Shown piece by piece: positions 2,918-34,143 of a DNA stretch of 38,967 bases. The notes under the pieces were generated by a model that worked only from the letters and a program-made list of their open reading frames with translations, was not told the origin of the DNA and searched no databases. The stretch's first letter is position 1; each line of letters begins with the position of its first letter. This DNA comes from a virus (taxonomy: Duplodnaviria; Caudoviricetes), in IMG/VR virus record IMGVR_UViG_3300032303_000677, positions 1 to 38,967 of that record; one strand, 5' to 3'. A program made the position numbers and the translations under genes.

Positions 2918-5050
2918 ATGCCACTCAAGAAAATAATATTCAAATCAGGAGTAAATCGGGAAAACACCCGTTATACAACTGAGGGCGGCTGGTACGAATG
3001 CGACAAGATTCGTTTTCGTCAAGGTACACCTGAGAAAATTGGTGGCTGGTTTCAAATATCAAGCAACACATTCCTTGGCGTATGCAGAGCGCTGTGGAAC
3101 TGGATTACTTTAGGAAGTTTAAACGCCCTTGCTGTAGGTACAAACCTCAAATACTACATTGAGAACGGTGGCGTTTACTATGACATCACGCCTTTGCGTT
3201 ATGCCGCTTCATCAACAAGCCTATCCAATCCTTTTGAAGTATTTAACACTCTTAAAACGGTAACAGTTACTTGGGCGGGGTCAAACCTTTCTACTGGAGA
3301 TGTGGTCAACATCTCTGGATGTACCGTTGCCGTTGGCGGAATTCCTGCCGCAGATTTCAATAAACAGTTCACCGTAACAAGGATAGGCACAAATACTTTT
3401 CAAATTACTGTGGCTACAGCGGCAACATCTTCCACCACTGGTGGCGGAACGGTAGCAGTTTCTTTGTACAAATACACAGAAAGGTTGACCAACCCTTTTC
3501 AGTGCTACCTTAATTCAACACTAATCACCGTTACAGATGCCGCTCATGGTGCTATTACCAATGACTTTGTAGACTTTACTTCTACCAGTACGTTTTATGG
3601 AGTAACCATAACTGGCTGGTATCAAATTGTTAGCGTTGTTGATGCCAATACCTACACTATTAATGCTGCTACACAAGCCTCACAAAATGCGTCATCCCAA
3701 GGTGGAACGGTAACGGCTCAGTATCAGATTAATACTGGACCTGAAGTTGCCGTGCCTTTAACTGGATGGGGCGCTGGTACATGGGGTTCTGGTACATGGG
3801 GAGTTGGAACGGCAGTTGCTCAAGACTTAAGAGTTTGGTCTCAATCTAACTTTGGCGAAAACCTTGTGTTTGCTCCACGTGGTGGAGGCATTTACTATTG
3901 GGTAGCAACAAATGGCGTTACAACTGCTGGCTTTAATATTGCCACCATCTATGGCGCTTCAGATGTGCCAACCATTCAAAACTACGTAGCCATTTCAGAT
4001 GCATCACGTTTTGTGTTTGCATTTGGATGTAACGACTATGGCTCCGCTGTCCAAGACCCCATGCTGATTCGCTGGTCAGACCAAGAATCCGTTTCTAATT
4101 GGACTCCAGATGCAACCAATCAGGCTGGTAGTCTGCGCCTTTCTCATGGCTCTTACATTGTAACTGCCATGCAGGTTCGTCAAGAAATTTTGGTTTGGAC
4201 TGATTCAACTGTCTATTCCCTTCAATATTTGGGAGCGCCAGCGGTCTGGGGTTCTCAATTGCTGGGAGATAACATTTCCCTTGTGGGACAAAACGCTACC
4301 GCATTGGCATCAAGCATTGTGTACTGGATGGGACGAGACAAGTTCTATAAATATGATGGTAGCGTTAGCACTCTAAGTTGCGACTTACGACAATTTGTTT
4401 ACGGCAACATCAATCTTTCTCAAGCCTCTCAATTCTTTGCCAGCACAAATGAAGGCTTTAACGAGGTGTGGTTCTTCTATTGCTCCGCAGATAGCATGGT
4501 AATTGACACCTACGTGGTTTACAACTACTTGGAGCAGATTTGGTATTACGGCTACCTTGGACGTACTGCATGGCTGGATACTGGTTTGCGTAACTATCCT
4601 TTGGCGGCAACCTATGCCGATAACATTGTGTTCCATGAGTATGGTGTTGATGACGGAACAGCCGTCCCCGTCAGCGCAATTGACTCCTACATCGTATCTT
4701 CACAATTTGACATTGATGATGGTCACAACTTTGGATTTGTTTGGAGGATTCTTCCTGACTTAACATTCCGTGGGTCTACTAGTAGTAACCCTAATGTGAC
4801 TATGACCCTGTATCCATTGCAAAACTCAGGCTCTGGTTACAACGACCCTCTATCTGAAGGCGGTAGCGCATATGCCACAGTTACTAGAACCTCTGTTGTA
4901 AACGTGGAAGAATTTACAGGAACAATTTATGTTCGGGTGCGTGGAAGACAGATGGCGTTTAAGGTTGAAAACAATAACCTTGGCGACCAATGGCAACTAG
5001 GCGCTCCTCGTATTGACATCCGTCCTGACGGCAGAAGGGGCAACACGTGA
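2918..5050 (+). CDS. Tail nozzle / DNA stabilisation protein (P22 gp10 / T7 gp12-like position), with two inserted beta-rich repeat domains
   Basis: MPLKKIIFKSGVNRE..GGWYECDKIRFRQG.PEKIGGW start, IRWSDQE and RVRGRQ motifs of podovirus tail proteins; duplicated LxNPF..TVT modules and GWG repeats. Confidence 0.75.
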   Translation: MPLKKIIFKSGVNRENTRYTTEGGWYECDKIRFRQGTPEKIGGWFQISSNTFLGVCRALWNWITLGSLNALAVGTNLKYYIENGGVYYDITPLRYAASSTSLSNPFEVFNTLKTVTVTWAGSNLSTGDVVNISGCTVAVGGIPAADFNKQFTVTRIGTNTFQITVATAATSSTTGGGTVAVSLYKYTERLTNPFQCYLNSTLITVTDAAHGAITNDFVDFTSTSTFYGVTITGWYQIVSVVDANTYTINAATQASQNASSQGGTVTAQYQINTGPEVAVPLTGWGAGTWGSGTWGVGTAVAQDLRVWSQSNFGENLVFAPRGGGIYYWVATNGVTTAGFNIATIYGASDVPTIQNYVAISDASRFVFAFGCNDYGSAVQDPMLIRWSDQESVSNWTPDATNQAGSLRLSHGSYIVTAMQVRQEILVWTDSTVYSLQYLGAPAVWGSQLLGDNISLVGQNATALASSIVYWMGRDKFYKYDGSVSTLSCDLRQFVYGNINLSQASQFFASTNEGFNEVWFFYCSADSMVIDTYVVYNYLEQIWYYGYLGRTAWLDTGLRNYPLAATYADNIVFHEYGVDDGTAVPVSAIDSYIVSSQFDIDDGHNFGFVWRILPDLTFRGSTSSNPNVTMTLYPLQNSGSGYNDPLSEGGSAYATVTRTSVVNVEEFTGTIYVRVRGRQMAFKVENNNLGDQWQLGAPRIDIRPDGRRGNT

Positions 5051-5364
5051 ACATTCAAGCACCTGCCACCCCTAACTTACCACTACCGCAAGAGCAATTT
5101 AGCAAGTTATATTTAAACCAACTAACTAACGTATTGCGCCTGTACTTTAATCAAGAAAACAGTGTCCTATCTGCACTGATTAATGAACTTCCAACCAACT
5201 TAGTTTACACGGTCAGCACTCTTCCAAGCGCCAGCGCTTCTGGTGTGGGATACAGGGCATTTGTAACTGATGCCACAGTAACAACTTTTGCCTCTACGGT
5301 TGCAGGAGGAGGAGCCAATAAAGTTCCCGTCTATTCGGATGGAACCAATTGGAAAATTGGATGA
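5047..5364 (+). CDS. Small tail protein (needle/plug-like)
   Basis: GTGA overlap with the nozzle gene; coiled-coil N-terminus and YTVSTLPSA..RAFVTDA..PVYSDGTNWKIG tail-fibre-like C-terminus. Confidence 0.6.
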   Translation: MNIQAPATPNLPLPQEQFSKLYLNQLTNVLRLYFNQENSVLSALINELPTNLVYTVSTLPSASASGVGYRAFVTDATVTTFASTVAGGGANKVPVYSDGTNWKIG

Positions 5365-5407: not shown

Positions 5408-5695
5408 ATGGACTTTATTGAACTTTTTAACAAGGTGGCACGGGTGGTAAAGCCAGCCCACCACACTTACGTCCCCATTGAAACGCTAGACGATAACCTA
5501 CAAGATACTGGTCTGGATAGCATGGACGGCATGATGATGTGCATCTATTTTTGCGACATCTACGGCATCCCCGATGAGATTGGCAAGGAGATGACGTTTA
5601 AATCGGCTAGGGAGTGCTGGGACTTCATCCAACTACACAAGACCAAAGAACCTTCTGGCTCCGCTGAAGAAGCCATCAAAGGGGTGGATTGGTGA
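5408..5695 (+). CDS. Acyl carrier protein (ACP)
   Basis: 95-aa acidic protein from ATG 5408 (AAGGA RBS) with the phosphopantetheine attachment motif LQDTGLDSMD and the YGI..E helix III region. Confidence 0.85.
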   Translation: MDFIELFNKVARVVKPAHHTYVPIETLDDNLQDTGLDSMDGMMMCIYFCDIYGIPDEIGKEMTFKSARECWDFIQLHKTKEPSGSAEEAIKGVDW

Positions 5696-6813
5696 TTTAC
5701 CTTACCGAGACCCGCACGGCATGCACCGAAACACATGAACTAATTGACGAGTTAAAGCACTTTCCTCAAAGGGTTCACTGGTTTCCAGAGACCTATAAGG
5801 GCAAAGATACGGGGATGATTTATGCGCCTCATCGTCTGGCTGAAAAAGTTTTGGATGGAGAACTACTCCGCAAACTACGGGAAAATCCTTGTAGGACTGC
5901 TTTTATTCTTGCTTCTGGAAATTCTCATTTTGCAGGGATAGAACCTGTAGACCTAGGGAAAACCCGACTAACTTACACCTATAAGTTTTTGCCTATGGCG
6001 TTAACTCAAGTGTACGCAGGGCGGGTAGCCAGTTCGTGTGGCGTTACAGACCACGTAGTGACCGATGCGTCAGCCTGTGCGTCAAGCCTCAAAGTGATGA
6101 TGGATGTCTACAACCTAGTTAAGTTGTATGGCATGGAGCGAGTCATTGTGCTGGGCGTGGAAGATGCAGTTACCAACGCAGTCTTGAACTTCTTTGGTGA
6201 TTCAAAAGCCGTGTTAACAGCCAAAGATGATGATGCTGGCATATTGCCATCAGCCTTTGACGAGAAGAACTATGGGTTCCACGTAGGTCAAGGCGCTGTC
6301 TTTGCCGTCTTTGAAACCGAGCAAAGCATGAAATTGACTGGGTTCCAGCCTAAAGCCAGACTGATGGGGGCGTATACATCAGGCGAAGACTCAACCAACG
6401 CTATTGGTCAAAGGGAAGACGGGCAAGGATTTAAACGAGCCATTCAAGGTGCGTTGTATATGTCCCAAGTTCAAAGTTCTCAAGTGCGAACGGTTAAGAC
6501 TCATGGCACTGGAACGAAGTCAAATAATCTTGCAGAAAAACACGCACTTACTAGCATTTTGAACGATTTTGTGGCAACATCGTTTAAACAAAGAATTGGA
6601 CACACTATGGGTGCAAGCGGATTGCTTGAAACCGTATTGTTGTTGGATAATATCAAAAACGGTTTTGTGCCAGCAATTGCCAACCGTACAGACGAAGACA
6701 AGGTTTTTCTTAGCAAGCCAGCCCCAGCAGAAAAGGGCGGTTTGATTTTGAGCCTTGCGGCTGGAATGGGCAATGTGTATTCCGCTGCAATTTTTAAGGA
6801 TGCACAATGCTAG
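5692..6813 (+). CDS. Beta-ketoacyl-ACP synthase (FabB/FabF-like thiolase fold)
   Basis: Cys-His-His triad motifs SACASS, KTHGTGT and KQRIGHTMGASG; GQGA (canonical GEGA) and C-terminal AAGMGN (canonical SFGFGG); GTG start overlaps the ACP stop (GTGA). Confidence 0.92.
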   Translation: MIYLTETRTACTETHELIDELKHFPQRVHWFPETYKGKDTGMIYAPHRLAEKVLDGELLRKLRENPCRTAFILASGNSHFAGIEPVDLGKTRLTYTYKFLPMALTQVYAGRVASSCGVTDHVVTDASACASSLKVMMDVYNLVKLYGMERVIVLGVEDAVTNAVLNFFGDSKAVLTAKDDDAGILPSAFDEKNYGFHVGQGAVFAVFETEQSMKLTGFQPKARLMGAYTSGEDSTNAIGQREDGQGFKRAIQGALYMSQVQSSQVRTVKTHGTGTKSNNLAEKHALTSILNDFVATSFKQRIGHTMGASGLLETVLLLDNIKNGFVPAIANRTDEDKVFLSKPAPAEKGGLILSLAAGMGNVYSAAIFKDAQC

Positions 6814-7322
6814 TTGACAGTAAGAAAAAGATGCTAGACCCGTCTGAGATTATTCTTGAGGCGACAAAAGAAACAAAGTCTAAGTATTCTCCTGACCAAG
6901 TGCTTGCCGCAATTATGAGCGAGGCTCATAGCGCTGGGGCTATTCTTATGCGCCAAGGCAACACCCTGTTCATTGTTCATCCAGCAAAAGACCGCACCGC
7001 TTGGTTCCGTGCTTTAAACGCAGACACCGCTCAAAATTATTTAAAAAACAGTCTTGATTACACCAAAGCCATGTATATGGCTGGTTTTGATGTCATGGTC
7101 ACAGAATTTGAAGACCCAACATTGTTGAGTCTTTTTAAATACGTTCAAAAAAACCGTGCAAAAATTAATCCTGATGTAGATGGCAAGCCAACAATGGGCT
7201 ATGCGGTTCAAAGAGTTAAAAGCAAGGGCTACGTTCCATTACCTCCCGAAACAGCAAAACCAAAAGACGATGGTTACCGTGTAACTACCGTGCTTGGACC
7301 AAGACGTGAAGGACAAATGTAA
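6807..7322 (+). CDS. Hypothetical protein, possible GNAT-like acyltransferase (T7 gp13-equivalent position)
   Basis: 171-aa alpha/beta protein overlapping the KAS stop and abutting the first ejection gene (TAATG). The fold call is inferred from size and synteny only. Confidence 0.4.
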   Translation: MLVDSKKKMLDPSEIILEATKETKSKYSPDQVLAAIMSEAHSAGAILMRQGNTLFIVHPAKDRTAWFRALNADTAQNYLKNSLDYTKAMYMAGFDVMVTEFEDPTLLSLFKYVQKNRAKINPDVDGKPTMGYAVQRVKSKGYVPLPPETAKPKDDGYRVTTVLGPRREGQM

Positions 7323-9904
7323 TGGGTGCAGTAGCAGATGTAGTTGAAGACGTAGTCGGTGGTGTAGTCAATGCCGTAGGCGATGTTGCCGAAGCAGTTG
7401 TACATGCGGCTGGTGACGTTGTTCAAGCCGTAGGCGATACCGCCACAAAAGTTGTAGAGACAGCCGTCAACGACCCAATTGGAACAATAGCCAAGGTAGC
7501 CGCAGTAGCCACAGGACAGTTTGAACTGCTTCCCGTTATCTCTGCCGTTGACGTTGTTGCTCACGGAGGCAACCTAGAACAAGCGTTAACAAGTGCCGCA
7601 GTATCTTATGTTGCACCGCAAGTTGGTGGTGCTATTGGTAGCGAATTGGCTGATACCGCTTTTGGTCAAGCCTTGACAGATATTGGAACAAATACTGGTA
7701 TTGAAAGTCTTCCATCCGCTGTATATCGTGGGCTAGGTTCTGCTGCCACACAAACTGCCGCTGGCGTTTTGCAAGGTCAAGACGTTGGCGATGCATTAAC
7801 AGGCGGTATAACCGCTGGTATTGGTTCTGGCGTAGGCTCTGCCGTAACTGCCGAGGCGGATACTGGCGGTGCTGGAACAAATACCTTAGACAAAATTCTT
7901 GGAAACACCGCTGGTGGAGTAACTACCGCTGCTTTGCGTGGCAAAGATGCGTACCTTGCTGGTGTAAACGCTGCTGCTGGCAGCATTACTGGTGCTGGTA
8001 TCAATGCAGCCGGGTCTGGTATAGCCAGTTTAAACGCTGATGCAGGACCAACCAAGACAGCAGAAGAAACCAAATCTACAGAAACAAAACCATCTGGAAC
8101 TCTACTAGCCAGCGCTAATGAAGTTGTATCTGACTCAGGGTTAACACCTACACAAGAAGCCATAAAAAATATGAAGGGTGAAGTAGAAGACCAAACGCCC
8201 GAACAAAAGGCTATGGTTGACCAACTTATCAAGGCTTTATATCCAGAGGAAGCCAAGAAAGAAGAAGAAGCCAAAAGAGCGGAAGCCGCCGCTACTGGAA
8301 ATCTTATTGATGACGATGGGCGTATAACCAATTTTGCTATTAATCCAGAGACTGGCGACTTATATAAGCCTCTGGGCGTTAACGAATTTGGCGATAAATT
8401 TGCTCCTGTTTTGCCACGTCAAGATTACGTTGGTAGCGAGACAATGATTAGCCCCAATGTTGTTTCCGCTATTTTGGGCGACCAAGAGGGCGACTTCCCA
8501 CAACAAATTGAAAACCGTGCAGACGGTTCAACTGTTGTCACCGAGTTTGATGGCACTCAACGTATTTTTAACGTTGATGGAACTGTTGAAACCATTGGTG
8601 CTGACGGAATCAAAACAACCGAAACCAATGAGGGCGCAAAAACCATTACTTACGATGACGGCTCAACCGTCACCATTAATCCTGATGGCACAGTAACTTC
8701 TACCGAAGCAACTGATACGCCATATACAGGCGAAACAGAAAAGACTTCCTCAAACAATGATTTGAGCAAACTCTCATCTGCGCTGCTGGGCGGTGCGACT
8801 GCTGGAGGCGCTAGAAACGTTAGCGGAACAGGCGGTACTGGCGTTAGCAGAAAAGGCACTACTGGCGGCTTTAACCTTGGAAACGCTGGTAGTCTTTTAG
8901 GTGGCGCAGCCGCAATTGGTGGCGCTGCTGCTCTGGCAAACAGTTTAAACGACACTGGAACTAATTCAGGTGGTGGTTTTTCACCATCTTTAAATGGAAT
9001 GAGTTGGGATATAACCGACCCAGCGGAGATTGAAAATGCTCGTGCTTATGGACAACATATGATTAGCCCCATTTATAAAGCGGAAGGTGGCTTACTGAGC
9101 CTGACTCCCCCCCCTTACCTGCAATCTCCTATTCAAAACCAGCAATACCCTGTTGGCGATATTCCTCGTCAAGACGCTGGCTCTCAACCTCAACAAGCGT
9201 ACGGTCAAATGCCGTACACACAGCCTGACCAAAATCAGTATGGTCAGATGAAGCCTCAATTCATTCAACCAACTATTGATAGTCAAAATCATTTAAACCT
9301 AAATCAGCCAAGAAATCAAAATCAAAATTACAACGCTGATTACACCAACTCAGTCAACATGTTTGCTGGTGGTGGGATGCCTATTGCTATGAATGATGGC
9401 GGTTTGCCTTCTATTCAGACAGACGAAGCAATTGTTGCCAATGCCGCCCGTAAGTATGGTCTTGGAGATGATGTTCGTGTTCTTAACAAGATTGAGGCTT
9501 TGGTAAATCAAGGCATGAACCCAGATGATGCCGCTCGGATTGTGGCTGGTTCAGCCAAGCCAACCCAAATGGCTATGGGCGCTCCTATGAGCAGACCAAT
9601 GGCAAGTGGCGGCATCTCTAGCCTTGGTCACTATTCTGATGGTGGACGCATGTTGAAAGGTCCGGGAGATGGAATGTCTGATGACATCCCCGCCACCATT
9701 GCTAACAAACAACCAGCACGTCTTGCAAACGAAGAGTTTGTGATTCCTGCCGATGTAGTTTCTCACCTTGGCAATGGCTCATCTGAGGCTGGCGCAAAGG
9801 TTTTATATGACATGATGGCAAAAGTTCGTAAGGCACGAACAGGAAACTCCAAGCAAGGAAAACAAATCCATGCTGAGAAGTTCATGCCTAAAATGAGGGG
9901 TTAA
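7322..9904 (+). CDS. Internal virion / ejection protein
   Basis: Met-Gly start, amphipathic V/A/D repeats, long Gly/Ala-rich region, C-terminal GPGDGMSDDIPA..ARLANEEFV..DVV domain seen in podophage core proteins. Confidence 0.65.
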   Translation: MGAVADVVEDVVGGVVNAVGDVAEAVVHAAGDVVQAVGDTATKVVETAVNDPIGTIAKVAAVATGQFELLPVISAVDVVAHGGNLEQALTSAAVSYVAPQVGGAIGSELADTAFGQALTDIGTNTGIESLPSAVYRGLGSAATQTAAGVLQGQDVGDALTGGITAGIGSGVGSAVTAEADTGGAGTNTLDKILGNTAGGVTTAALRGKDAYLAGVNAAAGSITGAGINAAGSGIASLNADAGPTKTAEETKSTETKPSGTLLASANEVVSDSGLTPTQEAIKNMKGEVEDQTPEQKAMVDQLIKALYPEEAKKEEEAKRAEAAATGNLIDDDGRITNFAINPETGDLYKPLGVNEFGDKFAPVLPRQDYVGSETMISPNVVSAILGDQEGDFPQQIENRADGSTVVTEFDGTQRIFNVDGTVETIGADGIKTTETNEGAKTITYDDGSTVTINPDGTVTSTEATDTPYTGETEKTSSNNDLSKLSSALLGGATAGGARNVSGTGGTGVSRKGTTGGFNLGNAGSLLGGAAAIGGAAALANSLNDTGTNSGGGFSPSLNGMSWDITDPAEIENARAYGQHMISPIYKAEGGLLSLTPPPYLQSPIQNQQYPVGDIPRQDAGSQPQQAYGQMPYTQPDQNQYGQMKPQFIQPTIDSQNHLNLNQPRNQNQNYNADYTNSVNMFAGGGMPIAMNDGGLPSIQTDEAIVANAARKYGLGDDVRVLNKIEALVNQGMNPDDAARIVAGSAKPTQMAMGAPMSRPMASGGISSLGHYSDGGRMLKGPGDGMSDDIPATIANKQPARLANEEFVIPADVVSHLGNGSSEAGAKVLYDMMAKVRKARTGNSKQGKQIHAEKFMPKMRG

Positions 9905-9905
9905 T

Positions 9906-11192
9906 ATGGGATTATTTACTTCCACCAGTTTGAATCAAACGCCTGATACTTCCACACAGGGAACTGTTACCCCGTACGCACAACCGTACGTTTCAAATCT
10001 TTTAGACAAGAGTCAAGCGTTACTCAATGCGCCAACTCCCGCTTATACAGGGCAGTTGACGGCTGGTTACGCTCCATTGCAAGAGCAAGCATGGCAAGGA
10101 CTGAGCAATTTAACTCTTCCCGCATCGCTGCAAAATGCTGGAGCCAATTTAAACGAGATTAGTCAAAAACAACAGGCGCTGACTTACGACCCAAATACGA
10201 TTACAGCAAACCAATTTGACGCTACTCAGGCTCAGAAGTACATGAATCCGTACATTCAAGCCTCTTTAGACCCACAATTGGCGGCTCTTCAGCGCCAGCA
10301 AGCCATCAATCAACAGGCTGACTTGGCTAAATTGACACAGGCTGGAGCATTTGGCGGTTCACGTCAGGCTATTTTGCAAGCCCAAAACAATGAAAACTTG
10401 TTGCGTCAACAGGGTCAATTGATTGGTTCTGGTTACAACCAAGCCTATCAAAATGCGGCTACTCAGTTTAACGCTGATGCGGCACGTGACTTACAGGCTC
10501 AACAACTTAACCAAGCGGCAAAACAATTTGGCGCTACCTATGGTTTGCAAGGATTGCAAGCGGCTACTCAGGCTCAGACTGCGGCTGCAAATGCTGGCGC
10601 TCAAGGCGCTCAATATGGTTTGGCAAATCTGCAAGCATTGAATACTGCTGGCGGTCAACAACAAGCGCTTGACCAACAGGCGCTCAATGCTCAATACAAC
10701 GAGTACTTGCGCCAGTTGAAGTTCCCGCAAGAGATGATTGCAATGAACAGAAACGTATTGGCTGGTCTTCCAATGACCACAACCAATACCTACTCTGCCG
10801 CCAAGAGTATTGCTCAACAGTTGGCTGGAGGCGTGTCTGGTGCTGCGGGTGTTATGAAAGACCTTAAATCTATGGGCTACACCCCTGACAAAATTGCGGC
10901 TTATGTTAAGAGCATGTTTACAGACTCTAAAGGTAATCCGACTCTTACTGACGAACAAATCAAACAAGAGATTGATAGGGTTACCGCTGAGAGCGAGGCT
11001 CAAAGAGCGCCTCCAGCAGACGCTCGAGACAATGGCGATGGAACGTTTACACGCTCTAGTGACGGCATTCTTGAGACCTACGACAACAAAGGCAATTTAA
11101 TTGGCGCAGAGCGTGACCCATCAACGATTAGCGATTATGTTAATCCAGAACCTCCCCCGCCACCAGAAGATTTAAGTAATTTTGAAGGCTAA
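9906..11192 (+). CDS. DNA pilot / ejection protein
   Basis: MGLFTS start; Gln/Ala-rich helices; YMNPY and AGAFGGSR motifs typical of podophage pilot proteins. Confidence 0.7.
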   Translation: MGLFTSTSLNQTPDTSTQGTVTPYAQPYVSNLLDKSQALLNAPTPAYTGQLTAGYAPLQEQAWQGLSNLTLPASLQNAGANLNEISQKQQALTYDPNTITANQFDATQAQKYMNPYIQASLDPQLAALQRQQAINQQADLAKLTQAGAFGGSRQAILQAQNNENLLRQQGQLIGSGYNQAYQNAATQFNADAARDLQAQQLNQAAKQFGATYGLQGLQAATQAQTAAANAGAQGAQYGLANLQALNTAGGQQQALDQQALNAQYNEYLRQLKFPQEMIAMNRNVLAGLPMTTTNTYSAAKSIAQQLAGGVSGAAGVMKDLKSMGYTPDKIAAYVKSMFTDSKGNPTLTDEQIKQEIDRVTAESEAQRAPPADARDNGDGTFTRSSDGILETYDNKGNLIGAERDPSTISDYVNPEPPPPPEDLSNFEG

Positions 11193-12892: not shown

Positions 12893-15800
12893 ATGGCAGG
12901 ATTAGTCCCTCAAGAGGACTTGCCGAGGAGTCTGTCGGGTAACGTAGTTCCTGATTCAGACCTTCCTTCTTTTGGCTCGTCTAAACCTAGCGTTCGTCCC
13001 GAAGATGTTGGGATTGGCACTGGAACGGTAGAAGCGTTTAAACGTGGTCTAGAGTCGTTTGGCGACATCTACCAAGGGTACAAACTTGCAGGGGCAAAAA
13101 TTGCAGGAACTGATGAGGAGGCTGCTCGTCAAATGGCGGCTATCAAAGCCGAGCAAGCCAAGCCAGTTGAAAAGCCAGCATTAAGGTTTGCCGATTTAGA
13201 GCGCATCTATAAAGAACAAGGTTTGGGTTCAGCACTTAAAGAAGTTCCCAAGTACATTGCTGAATCTGCCGCTGAATCTGCCCCACAGATGGCAGTACCG
13301 CTTGCCGCTGGAGCCGCTGCTGGTGCGGTTTCTGGTCCGTTTGCACCGATTGTTGCGCCCGTTGTAGGTATTGGTGCGTATGGACTCCAGCAGTTTGGTA
13401 GTTTGATGGGTCGCCAAGCACAAGAGAAAGAGAATCCCCAAGAACTGAGCGTTGGTAAAGCCGCTACTGCCGCCGCAATTCAAGCGCCTATTGGTTACTT
13501 TGCTGACCGATTCACCCTTGGTATTGGTGGATTGGGAGAAAAGGGCGTTCTAGAAGTTGGAAAAGAATTAGCCAAACGTAAAGCCGCAGGAGAAATTACT
13601 GCCGTTGGCGTGACCACAGGAATCGCTAAACAGGCTGGCAAGGGTGCAACCGTGGGCTTTATTGCAGAAGCCCCCACAGAAGCCTTAGAGCAAGTCCTAG
13701 AGCGTTGGCAAGCGGGATTAGACCTAGCATCGCCTGACGCATACAACGAGTACAAAGAGGCGTTCTTTGGCGCTGGTGGCGTTGGCTTGGTTGGTGGTGC
13801 GGCAAGTCGTGGTCGTACCGCATACAAGGGTTTTACTACCCCCGAAGAGATTACCAATGTTGCTCCTCCCGCCGCCAAAAAAGAGCAGGGTCAGTTGCTA
13901 CTGCCAGCCCCTGACGAAATCATCCTCAATGAAAAAGAGTACGACCCGCTGAAGAACCCATTGGGTAACTTCACTTGGCAAGACTTGACCAAAGAGCAAC
14001 GGGACTACATTAACAAAGACAGAAAAGATAACGGCAAGCCTCGTTTAAACACCTACTCTTTGGAAGATGTGGTCGATGCTATTCGCCACACCGAGAACAC
14101 GCCCGAAGCACAAGAAGGCGCAATCAACACTCTTCTTCAGAGCAAGACCAACTATGACGCAGTAAACAATGAGCCTATATCTGTTGACGATGTGCTAAGA
14201 AAGGCTGACCTACATGGTGTGGACACCACAACCAGAGGTTGGAATGACTATTTAAATAGGGTTACTGGTTCAGAAGATATTTCCGCTTTGAGCCAGCCGC
14301 AACTGTACTCAGCGTTTAAAGCGCTTGATGAGTTGCCCGTCAACCCAGCCGAACGAATTATTCTTCCCGAAGGAACAAACGCAGTACGTTTTAATGAAAC
14401 GCAGTACGCAAAAGCCTTGAAGGGGCTTGAGTTTGATTTTGGGGAGTTTGGTGCTAACTCTCTTTCTAGAACTAGTGTCATTCAATCTTTGAAGGACTAC
14501 TCTGGTCTACAGCGTGACGCAGACGCAGAGGCTTTGTACAAACAAGCCCTCAAACGTGGGGACTTGGAAGAGAACATGGTGGAAAGAAAGACTACCGAGG
14601 GGGTGAAGTACCCCGTGGAAGTTTCTTTTGCTGGTAAATCTGAAGCGCTTCCCGGTGGTTTTGACATTCGTGAACAAGCGTTTAAACAAGGAGCGGAGCC
14701 TGAAGCGTACGAAATTCGCAATGGTGCTGCGTTCATCAAGCGTGTAAACACGGCAGACGAAGCCCAGAAAGAAACTGAAAAGCAAACCAAGATTAACGAA
14801 AAGTTGGCTCAACAAGAGCAAAAGAAGATTGACCAACTGCTCAAGAACATTGCCAATCGGGATTCCCAATTAGACGTTCAACGTGCCAAAGGTTTTGCAA
14901 GTACCTTGGGATTCAAGAAGTTACAGGCGTACCTTGATTCTCTTAATAAGATTGACCAGCAATCTATTGATGTCCACACCAATGACATCAAAAACCTGAC
15001 CAATCCATTACAGATTGTCCCCATCGGGGAGAAGCCTGTGGTCAAGCGCAAGCAAGTTTTCTACAAAGAAGGCAAGCCTACCGCCTCGTTTGAGAAAAGG
15101 GTTGAGGCTGAAGCCTATGGCATTCTCAATCTTGACGATGCTACTTTGGAGCAGATTGTTGCATCCGCTCCCACGACCAAAGGTACTTTGCCCAAGCGCT
15201 ATGCGGCTATGGCGAAGAAAGAACTGGAAAGACGTAGGTCTGACCAAAAGGGCATTGAAGTTCGCAGAAGTATTTACAATCCCGAAGTTGATGAGGCTTT
15301 AGAAAAACTGCGTCAGACCCTTTTGCCGCAACTCAAGAAGTTTGGGTTGGAGAAGGTTGGCTTGCGTATTGTCAACAGTATTGCTAACGGACAAGCGGAT
15401 GGCACATACCTCAAGAGCATCATCACCATAGCCCTTGATTCCAAAGACCCTATGGGTGTTTTGCGCCATGAGTCCATCCACGCCCTTAAAGAACTTGGGG
15501 CTTTCACTCCGCAAGAATGGAAGGTTTTGGAAAACAAGGCGAAGGGCGAGTGGGTTCAAAAGTACATCAAAGATGCTGGCTTGTACAAAGCCTACCAAGA
15601 GGCTTATAAAGCCGAAAACGGCAACCTAAATGGCTTTGATGAGTACGTTCAAGAGGAAGCCATTGCCGAAGCGTTTAAAGACTTTGCCAACAACAAACCG
15701 CCAGCCGGATTGATTGGCAACATCTTCTATCGACTCGGAGAAATGTTCCGAGCCATCTCTAACTCATTTAAACGCCTTGGCTTCACCAGCGCAGACCAGA

Positions 15801-18800
15801 TTTTCCAAAAAATTGAAACGGGTGGGATGCAGATTGATGAGCGCCTCTTGGACTTCCAACCTATGGTTGTTCGAGGCGAAATTGATTCCAAAGGTCAACG
15901 CTATGCTCTGTTGCAACACGCATCTCAAAGGGATTTTGACAAATTATCGGAGAGCAACCTAAAGGCATTTGCCTATGGTTATGGTGCGTACGCAAGCGTC
16001 ACGCCTGACCTTAAAAAGAAAAAGATTGCCAATAAGGATGTGACGGACACATCAAAGTTTTACGCTCGTCCTATTTCTTACGCAGACAAAGAAGGCGGGA
16101 AGGGCTATCTGTATCTTGCAGACTTTCCGCTGACCAAAGACAACTCAATCTTCTTGTACGAACCCCCTGAGTCTCAACCTGAGATTACCGAAAAGTTGGT
16201 AAAGGCTGGCATCCTTGAACAAGATGACAAGTATGGTGGCTATCGCACTACGAAAGCGTATGGTGGCGAGCATGTTTACAACATGTACAACATGATTGAT
16301 AAGATGGGCGAAGCATACGCTCAAGATATGCTTCAATCAGGTTATCCAATGACTGGGCTGATGAAAGAGAATAAGCCAAGTGCTGCCAGTTTTTATGATG
16401 AGTTTGGCATCAAGGAGCGCATTGCCCGTCAGTTGGCTGACTTGGGAATTGATGTGTCTTTGACACAGGCTAACGATGACACCTATGCCATTGTTCACAA
16501 ACCTGAAAAATTCAATAAGGCGCTTGTTGGCAAGTACACCCTAGGTAGCAATGGAAATCTTGTAACCGTTTCTGGCAGACCCGTTGACACATCTTTGTTG
16601 ACGATGGTTCGTGAGGCGTTTAAAACATTCAAGAAGGAAGAGCAAAAGGCTGGAATTAAGCCTGAAGATTTGCCATCTCGTTCAAGTGGCGAGCGTTTCT
16701 CCTTTAAGCGTGAGCCTGACTTGCAGGGCGCAAAGATGTCCATTACCCCACGCAAGATTGGTGACCGCATCGTTGGTTCTCCTCCTGATGCCAAGACCGA
16801 AGAAGATAGAAAAGAACTTGTCGAGCGTATGGTCAAACTCCTTGAGCATCCATACTCCATGTATGACCGCTCCAAGGATTGGTACGAGCGTAGCGGTGCA
16901 ACCATTCGTGAGATTGCCCGTGATGACCCCGCTCTCATGGAGCAAGTTGTTCGTTTGACCGCCTTGTATTCCCAAGCCAATAGTCTTGGTGGAAACATTA
17001 CTGCCGTTATCAAGTCGGTGGCACAGATTGCTCGTGGCGAGAAAGAAATCCTTGCTGGTCGTTTCCCTGAGACAACCGCCAAGGTTATCCCCGCTATCCT
17101 TGCCGCCCCAACAATGGACACCTCACTCAAAGGCGTTGACGATAAGTTGATGAACTTCTATCGCAACTTGCACGATGCCACGTTTGAGACCGACACCTTC
17201 CAAGACTCTTCCACGATTGACCGTTGGATGATGCGTCTGTTCGGTTACCCGCATACCGATGACCAAGATGTCGGTGGTGCAAACTCTGTTTCTACTACTC
17301 AATACATATACGCCAAGGATTTGGTTGAGCGTATTACTGACGCACAATCTAAGAAGACAGGCGAAGACCTCAAGCCTCGTCAGATTCAAGCCGCTCTTTG
17401 GACTTACATTAAGAACCAAAGCGAGTATCAGAAAGCCGTTGAGAAAGCCAAAGACTTGGCTATCAAGAATGGCGAAGTGTTTAATGAGTCATCCGTTGAC
17501 TTCACGCCCGATACGCTTGACTTCTCCGACTACGTGAAACGGGCTACTGCTCACATCACATGGGAAAGCCGCCCTTCTACTTCAATCCCTATGATTGAGG
17601 GAATCCATACCGCCCCACGTGAAGAGCAAGAGGCGTTTAATCGGGCAGTTCGCAACATGCTTACTGATGCCAATGGTGAGGACAAGATATTTAAACTGCT
17701 TGGCGATGAGCAGTTGTACTCAAGTCAGTTGTCTATTGGTGGCTATGAAAACAAGATTGCTCCCAACATCATCACCAAGGTTGTCTTGCAAAAGGATGAG
17801 ACAGGACACCTTGTTCAAGTGGCTAGGGACTACGCCTCCATCATCGGATTTATCACTCGACAAGATGCTGTGCCTTGGTATCGTCCTGACCCAACCGCCT
17901 CTGGCAAGTTGGCAAGTAAGGGCTACAAGGTTTCGCTCAATGTTCCCGTAACGCAGGAACTTGAAGAGAAACTGTTTAAACATCTTGATGAGGCAATTCC
18001 CGGCATTGGTTTTACCAAGGTCGATGACACGTTCGACTTTATTAACTATCGTGGAGCCGATGGAAAGCCTTACATGATGTCCGACAAGAGGTACATCGAT
18101 GCATTACAAAATGCTTTGCAAACGTTCTCATCAGATGTAAACTTTAATATTGATGAGTTTAGAGCGCAGAGCGAATACCTAGACAACGACTGGAAGGAAA
18201 ATACAAATGGCGAAGGTCACCTTGCGAGGATTAGTCCCGAACGACTCCCCAATATACGAGCAACCATTGACAATTGGCGCAATCAATATGACGAACTTGC
18301 CAAGCAATTTGGAGAAGAGTTCGGATGGACGAGGGAAACTACTAAACCTGACCAACCTACCATTCGACCCAGCGAAGGTAGCGGGGGAGGCATCACTCTC
18401 GGAACGCAACAAGAAGGCGCAATAACTGTTGAGGGTGTTCACTATGGCGCAGTCAAGACAGATGAATTAGACGCATCCAAGTTTGGTACTGGATTGCGTG
18501 GCGCTGAACGTAGGCGCTTAGAAGATGCATATGATGACCGCATCAAGAAACGCATTTACTTCTACATCCCCAAAGAAACTGGCGAAATGCCAGCCCGTGA
18601 ATCTGGAGTAGGTTCAAACGTTTACACGCAGAAGTTCAACAACATCCTTGGTCAAGGCAAAGAGATGAGCCGTCTGTACTCAGAGGCTATGGGCGATGCC
18701 AATAACTTTGAGTCGGCAATCATTGACGCTGGCTACGATGGCTATGCCGTTCCAAGTATGGGCATGATGGTTGTGCTCAACCACAACGTGCCTGTTAACT

Positions 18801-21800
18801 ACGAAGGCACAGTTGCTGAACTTACAGAATCGGGCAGACTCAAAGAAGGCAAGGTCAGCCCGAAGATGAAAATTCGTGCGCCAGAAACAACTGCGTTTAA
18901 ACGCTGGTTTGGCGACAGCAAAATAGTCAACGAAGACGGAACACCCAAGGTCATGTACCACGGGACTGCCCAAGACATTACCGAGTTCAAGCCTAAACAG
19001 GCTGGCGCTATATTTGTAACCGAAAGCGCTCGCTTTGCAGACAACTTTACAAGTTCAAGTGAAAACTACATGCGTAAAGAGTTGTGGAATTCATCAAGCC
19101 ATGACAAGCACATTGAGTGGATTACAAAAGCCGCAAATCAAGCCAAGCAAGACAAATACATAACGCCCAAAGATGCGTCACGGATTATTTCGGAATGGAA
19201 ACAATTAGATGGGACTTATGGTCTCATCCCTTCCCAAATTGAAACGCAAGTTTTGGATGTCTTGAACGACCAATTGCCATCTAAGGGAAACATTATTCCT
19301 GTCTATGTCAAGGCAGAAAATCCTTTTGATTACGAAAACCCTACACATGTCGAACAAGTTTTGGCTAAAGTCTATCCAAACTTGGACATGAAAAATTCAA
19401 GCGCAGAAGAAAGCCTACAACTTGGCAGTTGGGAACGCATTGAAAGCAAAGAGTATCAAGACGCTATTAAGTCTTTAGGGTTTGATTCTTTCTACGTCAA
19501 AGAAGGCGATGTCAAAAACTTAGCCGTCTATAGTCCAACGCAAGTTAAGTCTGCAACTGGCAATACTGGTGAGTACAACCCTGAGAACCCAGACATCCGC
19601 TACTCAATCAAGAAGCCTTTAAACATTGACCCAGCGATTACTGCCCGTATAAACGCCACGACTCCCAAGCGTGTTGAGAAAGGTTTTGTTGAGCGTCTGA
19701 TGGATGCCATCTCTCCTGACTCAATGGGTAAGATTCGTCAGGCGCTTGTCAATAAGTATGAAGGCATTGAGCGTTTGAGCAGAGCCGTGGCTGAGAAGTA
19801 CGGCAAAGACCAACTGTTGGCTGAGACCTCCGCTATTGCATCCGCTCTTCAATCTGACAGGGCGGCAGGAGTTGCATCGGCATCGTTTACCAACGGCATC
19901 CCTGTCTACAAGAATGGCTACTTCACCATAGAGCCTGACACCAAAGGTTTGATTGCCATCCTTGAGCCTTTGATGTCTTATGGTAATCCTGAGATTTTCC
20001 AAGCGTTCCAGTTCTATGCCGCTACTCGTAGGGGTAAACGCCTATTGGCTGAAGGTCGTGAGCAACTGTTTACCGCTGATGACATCAAGATGGGCAAGGA
20101 TTTGGAAGCACAGTTCCCAATGTTTAAACAAGTCTTTGATGAGTATCAGGTCTACAACAAGGGCTTGGTTGATTTGATGGTTGGGCGTGGAGTCATCTCC
20201 AAAAAAGAAGGAGAAATTTGGACTCAGAATTGGGACTACATCCCTTTCTATCGTCAGATGGATGGCGAGAAGACGGCTGGACCAAGGGTCTTCTCTTCAT
20301 TGGTTGGCGTGGCAAAGCCCAAAGAATTGCAAGGTGGCAAAAAAGAACTTGCTGACTTCATGGAAACCGTGGTGCGTAACGCTCGTGCCGCTATTGAAGC
20401 CAGCATGAAAAACGAAGCCGCTCAACGTGTGGTGCGTGACGCTACACGTATGGAATTGGCACGTGAAGTTCCGCTTGGAACAACTGGCAAAGACGTTGTT
20501 ACAGTCAAGGTGGGCGGTGTAAACAAGTACTACCAAGTTGACGACATGCTTCTGGTGGAAGCCATGAAGGGTTTAAACCTCCCTCAAATGGAATGGCTCT
20601 CTTGGCTCGCCGCTCCCGCCAATTTACTTCGCAATTTTGTAACCAAAGACCCCGGTTTTATGCTTGCCAACTTGGGTCGAGACTCATTGCAAGCGTGGAT
20701 TACATCAGGCACGGACATGAGACCTGTTGTTGACACGTTTAAACAGTTTGGCAAAACGTTAACCAACAGCAGCCCCGAAGCGCAAGCGCTGGCAATGGCT
20801 GGTCTGACAGGCTACGATTTCTCAGGCGATGTCAGGTCAACTGCCAAAGAGGTGGAGAAAGAACTCCGCAAACGTGGCGGTGCAAAGACAACTACAGAAA
20901 GAGTGCTGTCTCCGCTGACCTCATTCTGGGAGATGTTGGAGCATGGCTCACACGCATCTGATATGGCAACTCGTGCAGAGGTGTATAAACGCACCCTTGA
21001 GAGGACTGGTAGCGAAGCAGAAGCGTTCTATCAAGCGATGGAAGTCTTGAACTTCTCACGCAAAGGTAACTCAGACGTGATTCGTATCGTGTCTGCTCTT
21101 GTGCCGTTCTTCAACGCACGTGTCCAAGGCTTGGATGTTCTGTATCGTTCGGGTTGGGGCAAGTTTGCAACCGAGAATTCAGACCAAATGAAGAAGGCGT
21201 TTGCCTCTCGTGCTCTGACTTTGATGGGTCTATCGATGGCTTACTGGTTCTTGGTCTCTGACGATGAAGAGTACAAGAAACTTTCTAAAGAAGAGCGAGA
21301 CAACTACTGGATTATTCCCGCCGTTGAGATTAACGGCAAACCTTTCCGATTCCCTATCCCATTTGAATTGGGCGTGGTATTCAAGGTTCTGCCTGAGAGG
21401 GTGCTTGAGACTGCCTTTGGCAATGACACAGGCAAGGATTTGAAAGAGTCGTTTGTGCGTAACGTGACAAACACCTTGCAAATTAATCCAATCCCACAGG
21501 CGTTCTTGCCAATGGTGGAGAACGTGGTGAACTACTCGTTCTTTAGTGGTGACCCAATCGTTGGGCGTGGCATGGAAGACTTGGCTCCTCAGTACCAGTT
21601 TACACAGGGTACATCGCAGATGGCAAAAGACTTTGGTGCGGCAACTGGCATGTCACCGATGAAGGTAGAAAACTTTGTGCGTGGTTACACAGGAACGATG
21701 GGTACATATGCAGTTCAACTGCTTGATGCTATCTATCGCACCGAAGGAGACCCCGTCAAAGCCACTTCAAGATTGGAGCAACTGCCTGTTATCAAACGAT

Positions 21801-22135
21801 TCTTTGCGGGTGATTCGGGTACTGTGTCTGCCTACTACGACCTCAAGCAAGAAGTGAATGAGGTGGTTCGCACAGTCAATATGCTTGAACGTACTGGTAA
21901 TGCAGACAACTTGCGTGAATATCTCAATGAGAACGGCAAACTGTATGGCATGCGTGACTACATCACCTCTCTTGAGAGAGACATGAAACAGATTCGTGAG
22001 GCACGTAATCTAATCAATGCGTCCAAGGATTACTCGGCAGATGAGAAACGTGAGCGCCTTGACATGCTCCATGACGTTGAAGTCAAACTGACACTCAACA
22101 TCAAAGAGATTAAGAAGCAGTACGCATCAAAGTAA
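12893..22135 (+). CDS. Giant polyvalent internal virion protein (3080 aa; zincin-like, ART-like and LPD38-like domains)
   Basis: HESIH..EEAIAE zincin motif (~15467); ART-PolyVal-like FKRWFGDSK..MYHGT..IFVT..PVYVK..GFDS..QVKSATGN (~18890-19605); C-terminal FPIPFELG LPD38-like region; last gene of the core module. Confidence 0.8.
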   Translation: MAGLVPQEDLPRSLSGNVVPDSDLPSFGSSKPSVRPEDVGIGTGTVEAFKRGLESFGDIYQGYKLAGAKIAGTDEEAARQMAAIKAEQAKPVEKPALRFADLERIYKEQGLGSALKEVPKYIAESAAESAPQMAVPLAAGAAAGAVSGPFAPIVAPVVGIGAYGLQQFGSLMGRQAQEKENPQELSVGKAATAAAIQAPIGYFADRFTLGIGGLGEKGVLEVGKELAKRKAAGEITAVGVTTGIAKQAGKGATVGFIAEAPTEALEQVLERWQAGLDLASPDAYNEYKEAFFGAGGVGLVGGAASRGRTAYKGFTTPEEITNVAPPAAKKEQGQLLLPAPDEIILNEKEYDPLKNPLGNFTWQDLTKEQRDYINKDRKDNGKPRLNTYSLEDVVDAIRHTENTPEAQEGAINTLLQSKTNYDAVNNEPISVDDVLRKADLHGVDTTTRGWNDYLNRVTGSEDISALSQPQLYSAFKALDELPVNPAERIILPEGTNAVRFNETQYAKALKGLEFDFGEFGANSLSRTSVIQSLKDYSGLQRDADAEALYKQALKRGDLEENMVERKTTEGVKYPVEVSFAGKSEALPGGFDIREQAFKQGAEPEAYEIRNGAAFIKRVNTADEAQKETEKQTKINEKLAQQEQKKIDQLLKNIANRDSQLDVQRAKGFASTLGFKKLQAYLDSLNKIDQQSIDVHTNDIKNLTNPLQIVPIGEKPVVKRKQVFYKEGKPTASFEKRVEAEAYGILNLDDATLEQIVASAPTTKGTLPKRYAAMAKKELERRRSDQKGIEVRRSIYNPEVDEALEKLRQTLLPQLKKFGLEKVGLRIVNSIANGQADGTYLKSIITIALDSKDPMGVLRHESIHALKELGAFTPQEWKVLENKAKGEWVQKYIKDAGLYKAYQEAYKAENGNLNGFDEYVQEEAIAEAFKDFANNKPPAGLIGNIFYRLGEMFRAISNSFKRLGFTSADQIFQKIETGGMQIDERLLDFQPMVVRGEIDSKGQRYALLQHASQRDFDKLSESNLKAFAYGYGAYASVTPDLKKKKIANKDVTDTSKFYARPISYADKEGGKGYLYLADFPLTKDNSIFLYEPPESQPEITEKLVKAGILEQDDKYGGYRTTKAYGGEHVYNMYNMIDKMGEAYAQDMLQSGYPMTGLMKENKPSAASFYDEFGIKERIARQLADLGIDVSLTQANDDTYAIVHKPEKFNKALVGKYTLGSNGNLVTVSGRPVDTSLLTMVREAFKTFKKEEQKAGIKPEDLPSRSSGERFSFKREPDLQGAKMSITPRKIGDRIVGSPPDAKTEEDRKELVERMVKLLEHPYSMYDRSKDWYERSGATIREIARDDPALMEQVVRLTALYSQANSLGGNITAVIKSVAQIARGEKEILAGRFPETTAKVIPAILAAPTMDTSLKGVDDKLMNFYRNLHDATFETDTFQDSSTIDRWMMRLFGYPHTDDQDVGGANSVSTTQYIYAKDLVERITDAQSKKTGEDLKPRQIQAALWTYIKNQSEYQKAVEKAKDLAIKNGEVFNESSVDFTPDTLDFSDYVKRATAHITWESRPSTSIPMIEGIHTAPREEQEAFNRAVRNMLTDANGEDKIFKLLGDEQLYSSQLSIGGYENKIAPNIITKVVLQKDETGHLVQVARDYASIIGFITRQDAVPWYRPDPTASGKLASKGYKVSLNVPVTQELEEKLFKHLDEAIPGIGFTKVDDTFDFINYRGADGKPYMMSDKRYIDALQNALQTFSSDVNFNIDEFRAQSEYLDNDWKENTNGEGHLARISPERLPNIRATIDNWRNQYDELAKQFGEEFGWTRETTKPDQPTIRPSEGSGGGITLGTQQEGAITVEGVHYGAVKTDELDASKFGTGLRGAERRRLEDAYDDRIKKRIYFYIPKETGEMPARESGVGSNVYTQKFNNILGQGKEMSRLYSEAMGDANNFESAIIDAGYDGYAVPSMGMMVVLNHNVPVNYEGTVAELTESGRLKEGKVSPKMKIRAPETTAFKRWFGDSKIVNEDGTPKVMYHGTAQDITEFKPKQAGAIFVTESARFADNFTSSSENYMRKELWNSSSHDKHIEWITKAANQAKQDKYITPKDASRIISEWKQLDGTYGLIPSQIETQVLDVLNDQLPSKGNIIPVYVKAENPFDYENPTHVEQVLAKVYPNLDMKNSSAEESLQLGSWERIESKEYQDAIKSLGFDSFYVKEGDVKNLAVYSPTQVKSATGNTGEYNPENPDIRYSIKKPLNIDPAITARINATTPKRVEKGFVERLMDAISPDSMGKIRQALVNKYEGIERLSRAVAEKYGKDQLLAETSAIASALQSDRAAGVASASFTNGIPVYKNGYFTIEPDTKGLIAILEPLMSYGNPEIFQAFQFYAATRRGKRLLAEGREQLFTADDIKMGKDLEAQFPMFKQVFDEYQVYNKGLVDLMVGRGVISKKEGEIWTQNWDYIPFYRQMDGEKTAGPRVFSSLVGVAKPKELQGGKKELADFMETVVRNARAAIEASMKNEAAQRVVRDATRMELAREVPLGTTGKDVVTVKVGGVNKYYQVDDMLLVEAMKGLNLPQMEWLSWLAAPANLLRNFVTKDPGFMLANLGRDSLQAWITSGTDMRPVVDTFKQFGKTLTNSSPEAQALAMAGLTGYDFSGDVRSTAKEVEKELRKRGGAKTTTERVLSPLTSFWEMLEHGSHASDMATRAEVYKRTLERTGSEAEAFYQAMEVLNFSRKGNSDVIRIVSALVPFFNARVQGLDVLYRSGWGKFATENSDQMKKAFASRALTLMGLSMAYWFLVSDDEEYKKLSKEERDNYWIIPAVEINGKPFRFPIPFELGVVFKVLPERVLETAFGNDTGKDLKESFVRNVTNTLQINPIPQAFLPMVENVVNYSFFSGDPIVGRGMEDLAPQYQFTQGTSQMAKDFGAATGMSPMKVENFVRGYTGTMGTYAVQLLDAIYRTEGDPVKATSRLEQLPVIKRFFAGDSGTVSAYYDLKQEVNEVVRTVNMLERTGNADNLREYLNENGKLYGMRDYITSLERDMKQIREARNLINASKDYSADEKRERLDMLHDVEVKLTLNIKEIKKQYASK

Positions 22136-32026: not shown

Positions 32027-32242
32027 TTAATGAACGATTTCACTTGATGGGTCTGTCTCATCGTAGACACGAGAGACAGTCATCACTATGTATGCAAGGA
32101 GCGATGCGGGGTCAATGCCCCCCATCACCCCCGCTCTTGCAAGCAACATGGTCAATGCGGGAATGACAATCTCCATCTGCTTGCCATTCAACGTATCGCC
32201 CATGTTGTCTAACAGTTTGTCAAAGTCCTCAACGGTGTTCAT
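32027..32242 (-). CDS. Hypothetical early protein
   Basis: Likely start MNTVEDF at 32242 (AGGAG RBS, ATGA overlap with the VWA gene). Confidence 0.55.
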   Translation of the reverse strand: MNTVEDFDKLLDNMGDTLNGKQMEIVIPALTMLLARAGVMGGIDPASLLAYIVMTVSRVYDETDPSSEIVH

Positions 32243-33042
32243 TGCAACTCCTTGAGGATTTTGTTGAACGATGCTGATGCCAAGCCGTTGATGTCTACAA
32301 CGTTCTCGCTTGAGCGAAAGCACTCCTTAACACTCGTGTGCCCAATACCGATTGCAATAATCTTGACGTTGAGTCTGTCGGCAAGACTTTGCAGATGAGC
32401 CATGTGCTTTTGGTTGTAGCCGTCAGCATCGGTGAGCAAGAACAAAATCTTGCGTTGCTCTTGACGAGTAGCCAAGTCTTCAATCGTGATACTCAGGGAT
32501 GAGTAGTCAGGCGTTGCAGACCTAGCCCATTGATGAATCGAACCCAACTTGGCTGATGCTTTCTGAATCGATTCTTTCCACGTCTTGAACGGCACGAACG
32601 TGGGTTGCTCGTGCTTGATGTTGATGTTGCCGACTGCACCAGTAGCGTTCTGATAAACGGTCTCAGCACCGCCATAAAACCCTGTGACGTTGAACGACAC
32701 GTTGGCTTTGTCCAAGATGCGAGACAACTGGATTGCCAACGCCTCGGCAGTACCGATGCGATTGTCAGAATTCATAGAACCCGAACAGTCGATGAGTATC
32801 GATACCGCTGATGCCTCTGCCTCAACGTGCACACGTTTGGCAAACACCGCAGTACTGCCACAAGCAAAGCGTGTAAACGCCTTACGGTCTAAACGCCCTG
32901 ACTCCTCGTGCGTGTTCCAACCGACCAAGTCGAGTGAACGCAAGAGTCGCAAGATGTTGGCACGAGTAGCACCAAGGTTGCTTGCCTGATGGTTGTACTG
33001 GAATGAATAGTTGCGCTCTGCATCTGCTTTGATTACGTACAT
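32239..33042 (-). CDS. VWA-domain protein (CobT C-terminal-like)
   Basis: SGRLD motif, MIDAS DCSGSM, TPD and LLTDA; IAIGIG. Confidence 0.85.
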   Translation of the reverse strand: MYVIKADAERNYSFQYNHQASNLGATRANILRLLRSLDLVGWNTHEESGRLDRKAFTRFACGSTAVFAKRVHVEAEASAVSILIDCSGSMNSDNRIGTAEALAIQLSRILDKANVSFNVTGFYGGAETVYQNATGAVGNINIKHEQPTFVPFKTWKESIQKASAKLGSIHQWARSATPDYSSLSITIEDLATRQEQRKILFLLTDADGYNQKHMAHLQSLADRLNVKIIAIGIGHTSVKECFRSSENVVDINGLASASFNKILKELQ

Positions 33043-33045
33043 GAT

Positions 33046-34134: not shown

Positions 34135-34143
34135 AGCACCTCC

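Follow-up and report, generated by a model that had tools for sequence, protein, structure and literature searches.

What is an acyl carrier protein (ACP) doing, together with a ketosynthase, in the middle of the virion genes of a tailed phage? The window considered here, that is, the whole stretch of DNA that was analysed, is a partial phage record of 38,967 bp. It encodes an ACP (5408..5695, + strand), a ketosynthase (KAS; 5692..6813, +), a third gene that we call X (6807..7322, +) and a long gene behind it (7322..9904, +), all as overlapping reading frames: the KAS start overlaps the ACP stop through the bases GTGA, X overlaps KAS by 7 nt, and the long gene shares a single nucleotide with X. 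An overlap of four bases joins ACP to KAS in 86 of 89 loci. Lysis, tail and ejection genes share a single + strand run with ACP-KAS-X, and the coordinates and overlaps thus confirm the view of the initial annotation that the three genes sit inside a late structural operon.

On the 5' side of the ACP lie a holin, an endolysin, a 710-aa virion structural protein (phrog_3287) and a 105-aa gene. The last two (2918..5364, +) provide an anchor outside the cassette and also occur in relatives that have neither X nor the cassette. The 710-aa gene is probably nozzle- or stabilisation-like, and MW202545.1 has, at the same position, a gene labeled "phage stabilization protein." The 105-aa gene (5047-5364) is small and conserved; its NCBIfam rows to Shiga toxin A models (12-13 bits against cut-offs >700) were read as noise. 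On the 3' side, the 860-aa product of the long gene is followed by a PHROG "DNA ejection protein" (phrog_4287, E 5e-7; 9906..11192, +) and a 3080-aa polyvalent protein (12893-22135), which contains two ART-PolyVal stretches, DUF7178 and LPD38 and is probably the last ejected protein. The slot of the cassette had been described as lying between tail nozzle and core proteins. Its nozzle label is weaker than was implied, since 2918-5050 matches only a PHROG for "virion structural protein." Elsewhere in the window, a GIY-YIG homing endonuclease lies between two tail-region genes (562-1191), and a CbbQ/MoxR-type AAA ATPase, a 362-aa gene and a CobT-like VWA gene stand in a row on the - strand (32239-35622).

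ACP, KAS and X are under purifying selection, with dN/dS values against six close relatives of 0.06-0.16, 0.055-0.10 and 0.09-0.10 (four computable), respectively, similar to that of the upstream structural gene. A recent foreign insertion was rejected, as GC content and dN/dS resemble those of the neighbors, except for an ACP GC3 of 0.61. A search for a promoter and terminator belonging to the cassette gave 2 and 3 sites, compared with 3.8 and 2.8 in shuffles, and hence no signal. As had been stated earlier, no phosphopantetheinyl transferase (PPTase), FabD or reductase was detected in a Pfam scan of the 35 window ORFs, nor was PF01648 (PPTase) found in the record, which is only ~63% complete.

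The ACP (95 aa, ATG 5408 to TGA 5695) is divergent. It has no Pfam match and does not reach the PP-binding cut-off; its bacterial homologs score 13-17 bits on this model against a cut-off of 20.8. Searched against the PDB, a nine-sequence family profile gave 29 matches at E<=1, each weak, of which 28 are ACPs, with NodF among them, and the top clusters in the ESM atlas (0.96) carry PP-binding on 11% of their members. The protein is small and acidic (net charge -9), the pair Asp37-Ser38 is invariant, and the Ser is present in 63/63 and 59/59 aligned sequences. Together these data uphold the original call of an ACP with its attachment serine, Ser38 being the predicted phosphopantetheine site.

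The KAS (373 aa, GTG 5692 to TAG 6813) is KAS I/II-like and matches the Pfam ketoacyl-synt and Ketoacyl-synt_C domains at 42.4 and 65.1 bits (cut-off 20.8), with all of the catalytic residues Cys129, His271, Lys299 and His304 in place. The triad that had been reported as intact is a property of the family: in 129 relatives, drawn from all scans and dereplicated at 90% identity, both His motifs and the catalytic Lys are kept in 129/129, and the Cys pattern matches 127/129, with the Cys visible on inspection in the other two. FabF and FabB of type II fatty acid synthesis, which work with AcpP, have the same catalytic residues and domain pair, but the phage enzyme is ~40 aa shorter and at most ~33% identical to them, and no fabG, fabD or fabH lies beside KAS genes of the phage type. 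Equivalog models were scored far below their cut-offs (TIGR03150, 126 vs 493.75 bits; FabB, 52.7 vs 630). The family is made up of 50%-clusters (about 40, near full length) with identities of roughly 31-72%; the next matches, household FabF and PKS domains, score no more than about 100 bits. A quick tree with 86 rows places the family in a clade apart from six FabF-like rows (SH-aLRT 100), and the KAS is therefore a member of a discrete, mostly phage-borne family outside FabF. IMG/VR holds 580 relatives, which makes the cassette common. Among 22 INPHARED records matched, the only family member is the metagenomic MW202545.1, the other 21 being 22-28% matches, and none is a cultured phage of the family. 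Bacteria that have a KAS of this family also keep a household-type KAS.

The ACP lies directly upstream of the KAS in 129/129 dereplicated loci, and X is the next gene after KAS in 96/129, which substantiates the expected linkage of the pair to X and the ejection block. In the remaining loci the KAS is followed by a small early gene (23), another early-block gene (2), FabZ (1), HlyC (3) or unrelated bacterial genes (2), or the contig is too short (2). The 23 loci with a small early gene have the pair behind an SNF2 helicase, an arrangement found in two clades of the quick tree. In all, the pair lies among replication or early genes, out of the virion operon, in 26/129 loci; it has thus left that operon several times, and an early-block position fits late virion use less well. 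In L509 (5699-7555), a locus of G275, the order is SNF2 helicase, ACP, KAS and a FabZ/FabA-like dehydratase (PF07977, 104 bits), and the presence of the last gene suggests real chain building. In the KAS lineage nearest to the clade of the window (L024:5722-7115, L339:2960-4350) the pair has moved into the early block, after a recombination-type gene, and both contigs end before the X slot.

X is modeled by AlphaFold as a single-domain GNAT-fold protein of 171 aa (pLDDT 89.9), and Foldseek against the PDB returned acyl- or acetyltransferases in 33/33 among the matches listed. In VIA, 302 of 999 aligned chains had a Z of at least 8; the best match is RimI (Z 10.8, rmsd 3.2 Å over 128 residues), but it is tied with many GNATs and so indicates no subfamily for X. 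The VIA run was limited to folds found by Foldseek, and the absence of HlyC, LuxI and FeeM from it carries no weight. A transferase fold at 6807-7322, whose absence would have counted against the proposal of the initial annotation, is accordingly predicted. In the model, β4 and α3 are joined by a three-residue turn with an invariant Asp73 and no GxGxG, and in the X alignment conserved Gly is absent between positions 51 and 93. The accessible text of PMC9703596 places the CoA pyrophosphate loop at β4-α3 and has HlyC taking holo-ACP without that loop, and the same source and the available part of PMC8339906 describe HlyC-type GNATs as using acyl-ACP and as being without CoA-binding elements. X is likewise predicted to be without the CoA loop, like ACP-using GNATs, and is a candidate acyl-ACP-dependent N-acyltransferase. 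The conserved residues are E39, H58, R68, D73, K111 and K115, of which R68, K111 and K115 could bind an acidic ACP. Against a role in lipidation, the best structural matches of the modeled X are ordinary CoA-using GNATs. Homology of X to HlyC was considered and rejected, with PF02794 in 0/71 X members and an hhalign probability of 0.1% against a two-sequence HlyC profile.

A long gene begins at the X stop in 346 loci. Its product in the window, the 860-aa protein, is likely the first ejection protein, judging from its place between X and the phrog_4287 gene. The initial annotation had called it an ejection gene outright; 7322-9904 matches no ejection-protein profile, but the next gene does. 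The first ~70 aa of the 860-aa protein make up an amphipathic helical leader that begins with a small residue, with a hydrophobic moment of 0.40 against a median of 0.14 for other phage genes, and we infer that this leader may be the acyl acceptor. In 196 such genes, a count that covers ATG starts, residue 2 is Ser in 96, Gly in 69, Ala in 16, Pro in 11, Thr in 2 and another residue in 2; S/G/A/P/T thus account for 194/196, compared with 50% for G/S/A/T in 402 background starts. The first 30 residues contain no Lys in 140/196 and no Cys in 193/196. Taken with residue 2, this pattern fits a freed α-amine and not acylation of the leader on Lys or Cys. N-myristoyltransferases have tandem GNAT domains and require a strict Gly at substrate residue 2; here X has one domain and residue 2 is not Gly-specific, and an NMT-like, glycine-specific reading, and with it Gly-specific myristoylation, was discarded. 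The second ejection protein, with Ala, Gly or Ser at residue 2 in 105/110, is a possible secondary acceptor. In three loci (L513:7556, L236 and L201) the coding sequence behind X, or behind an X-like gene, starts with an extension of 25-35 aa that ends at a Gly run, as if a propeptide were cleaved and a new N-terminal Gly exposed.

The leader tracks X, the two being gained or lost together across relatives. Its start pattern is present in 171/196 genes behind X and in 0/42 unique sequences in X-less loci, and the median hydrophobic moment of the next large gene is 0.44 behind X and 0.13 in X-less loci, where 10/47 of the next large genes are shown to be homologous to the window protein, via the C-terminal domain. 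Sister-pair checks were mixed, as the leaders behind divergent X in L542 and L513 are not amphipathic. As a cassette-independent control we took the upstream structural gene and inspected the loci of its 80 closest relatives. Twenty were too short; the 60 informative loci comprise 48 with neither X nor cassette (a divergent X is possible in one of them, L513), 5 that have X alone and 7 that carry the cassette, which is thus dispensable for the wider phage group. On a nozzle tree (66-row FastTree, ten rows added to the set) the X-less state required 6 changes, and loci with X only are nested at two points among phages that carry the cassette. The pattern is a nested one: KAS within X plus leader, and these within the wider group. 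The X slot of X-less relatives is filled by other small genes (107 aa; 214 aa), as in L553:4924-5256, L554, L555 and L562.

Bacterial copies of the pair are few. GTDB yielded 16 loci, with 8 members of the KAS family, 4 on phage-like contigs and 4 chromosomal-looking. In L166 (an 890-kb contig), L167 and the metagenomic L282 the gene order is HlyC-like, ACP, KAS, HlyC, and the KAS of these loci form a clade outside the main phage clade (quick tree). The HlyC matches in genomes G033 and G034 are only those flanking the pair, and 150 relatives each of G033 and G035 gave no further copies. An outer-membrane efflux gene and an RTX-repeat protein are also present (L166:7277-14361, L167:3775-7550), the repeat gene of L166 being split over more than one frame in the assembly. 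The RTX protein starts in L166 and L167 share with many phage leaders a motif composed of an aromatic residue, Val, x, an acidic residue, x, two aliphatics, x, Pro and an aliphatic. When an ungapped leader matrix from 81 phage instances was scanned over 312,642 windows of 19 bacterial loci, the two RTX N-termini scored 23.8 and 24.2 bits against 13.3 for the next best, with the motif anchor picked after L166 had been inspected and the matrix tried second, after an HMM. L166 and L167 are kin (KAS 74% identical), and the leader of the window itself scores only 17.1 bits. On columns outside the anchor pattern, 14/734 background sites were as high, 12 of them further phage leaders and 2 a Pro-rich repeat. 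With the full-length leader HMM, the RTX start of L166 reached only 4.4 bits (1/300 shuffles as high). Other chromosomal-looking pairs (L163:7717-9128, L161, L290, L291 and L331, from Rhodocyclaceae and Nitrosomonadaceae bins) are nested inside the phage clade and adjoin a DUF6345 gene or a glyoxalase-family gene; they are likely phage-to-host transfers and hint at betaproteobacterial hosts. No transferase is adjacent in L161/L291 and L163, and no HlyC was found in their genomes.

We propose that the cassette is a phage protein-lipidation system in which X moves a cassette-built acyl chain to the N-terminus of the first ejection protein, a proposal for and against which we see the case as evenly poised. 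A host PPTase would load the ACP at Ser38. Host FabD would supply malonyl groups, and the KAS would extend a host-derived acyl chain on the phage ACP in the style of NodE/NodF, as the intact catalytic residues and the FabZ-like gene added in one lineage suggest; host enzymes would finish the chain or leave it in a 3-oxo or unsaturated form. Host methionine aminopeptidase would expose the small residue 2 seen in the leaders, and X, if its predicted fold and loop loss are taken at face value, would accept the acyl-ACP and acylate the N-terminal amine. The lipidated amphipathic leader may then aid entry into the envelope at ejection, or loading into the head. The lipidation module of the initial annotation is thereby partly supported, by the GNAT fold of X, the linkage of the pair to X and the ejection block, and the kin clade in bacterial HlyC/RTX loci, but the pairs outside the virion operon and the 48/60 relatives without the system weigh against it.

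The ACP-KAS pair relocates as a unit, and X need not have it alongside: among 80 X loci KAS is adjacent in 55, and not adjacent in 24 (24/79 informative), the contig being too short in 1. One record, G291 (68% complete), has a divergent X and no KAS, and G275 (47% complete) has KAS and no X. The top structural match of X, RimI, is an N-terminal acetyltransferase. It may therefore be that X acts on the leader with a donor supplied by the host, either acetyl-CoA or acyl-ACP, or as a non-catalytic loading chaperone, and that the pair is an unrelated passenger altering host lipid synthesis; the accessible text of PMC8224337 reports acpP, fabF and fabG as prophage auxiliary genes. We nevertheless consider this unlikely. 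Where pair and X are apart, both are on the same record in 5/7 records of at least 30 kb (G006, G022, G028, G029 and contig C9 of G276), records under ~27 kb without the partner gene being counted as uninformative, whereas in 17 whole records of nozzle-related phages KAS, sought with a query that did give matches in other searches, is found in 0/17 and X in 1/17, these records (14 or 15 of them X-less; one complete and three 77-83% complete) having been chosen by length or for an X-like gene. The predicted loss of the CoA loop, the distance of the KAS family from household FabF with no fabG beside it, and the acyl-ACP-dependent transferases that flank the bacterial pair copies also argue against a host donor.

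When the pair has moved off, X stays directly before the ejection gene. This position, and the joint gain and loss of X and leader, make it quite improbable that the three genes serve to produce an acylated small molecule or to alter a lipid or protein of the host (in the envelope, in signaling or in counter-defence) with the ejection gene a mere neighbor, although many top fold matches of X act on small amines, two bacterial pair copies lie beside unrelated genes, and NodF/NodE/NodA-type sets acylate non-protein acceptors according to the available part of PMC9048898. Least of all do we favor the KAS itself as transferase or leader reader, handing the acyl group from its active-site Cys to the N-terminal amine, in which case X (in bacteria, HlyC) would be an adaptor or catalyze a second step. 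In its favor are the same leader motif beside the same ACP-KAS family despite unrelated GNATs, the presence of the motif in 101/168 cases where the pair is adjacent and 2/28 where it is not (a contrast that is confounded by kinship and by a training set drawn mainly from linked loci), and a KAS score of 102.6 bits on AmcF, named an acyltransferase subunit (cut-off 325). Against it, the residues that decarboxylative condensation needs, the two His and the Lys, are retained in all 129 family members, one lineage adds a dehydratase, and the leader follows X, not KAS.

Returning to lipidation of the ejection protein, a wider form of the proposal is a new N-terminal lipidation system composed of a mobile ACP-KAS pair, interchangeable GNATs (X or HlyC-like) and a shared leader, put to use in phages as a membrane anchor for the ejection protein; it would explain the small slot genes of podoviruses, and we offer it tentatively, as a possibility that is more doubtful than probable. 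The cassette itself is real, widespread and conserved across uncultured phages. It bears on the way in which the ejection proteins of short-tailed phages get into the host envelope: in the review PMC8954989 the first ejected protein is said to insert into the membrane, and the word "acyl" is absent from the main text. If the proposal is true, a lipid anchor made by the phage would be a kind of virion modification not seen before, the GNAT-like slot gene before podovirus ejection genes would gain a testable function, and two fatty-acid genes that would probably be counted as auxiliary metabolic would serve morphogenesis instead. Such a transferase, with its short leader tag, might also be of use as a lipidation tool. 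In the literature searched (mostly without subscription papers), we found no description of a phage ACP-KAS-X system and no report of lipidation of an ejection protein in tailed phages.

Several known systems resemble the cassette in part. Small genes before podovirus ejection genes include DUF2824 (PF11039), presumably P22 gp14, and PF11090, presumably T7 gp13, and we know of no ACP or KAS beside them. X occupies the same position and has the same size; DUF2824 is its nearest named ESM cluster (0.93, 143 shared features) and a BFVD fold match (E 3.3e-3, TM 0.46). This likeness is one of features and fold, whereas at the level of Pfam 0/71 X sequences match either family at E<=1. HlyC/RtxC (PF02794) are described in the available parts of PMC8339906 and PMC9703596 as GNAT-fold protein acyltransferases that act on RTX proteins and use acyl-ACP, with no dedicated ACP-KAS pair mentioned there. 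The bacterial clade of the present KAS family lies between two HlyC-like genes, but neither Pfam nor profile comparison identifies X as HlyC, and HlyC targets internal lysines, which the first 30 residues of most phage leaders do not contain. NodA of rhizobia also has the GNAT fold. The NodF/NodE/NodA set, in the accessible text of PMC9048898, provides a dedicated ACP and ketosynthase with no reductase of its own required, which make a special chain for an N-acyltransferase, and the phage genes match it in kind (ACP, ketosynthase, candidate N-acyltransferase). The Nod acceptor is a chito-oligosaccharide, whereas the candidate acceptor here is a protein and the genes lie in a virion operon. The logic of the phage system is thus known from NodF/NodE/NodA and from HlyC, and the system is a member of neither.
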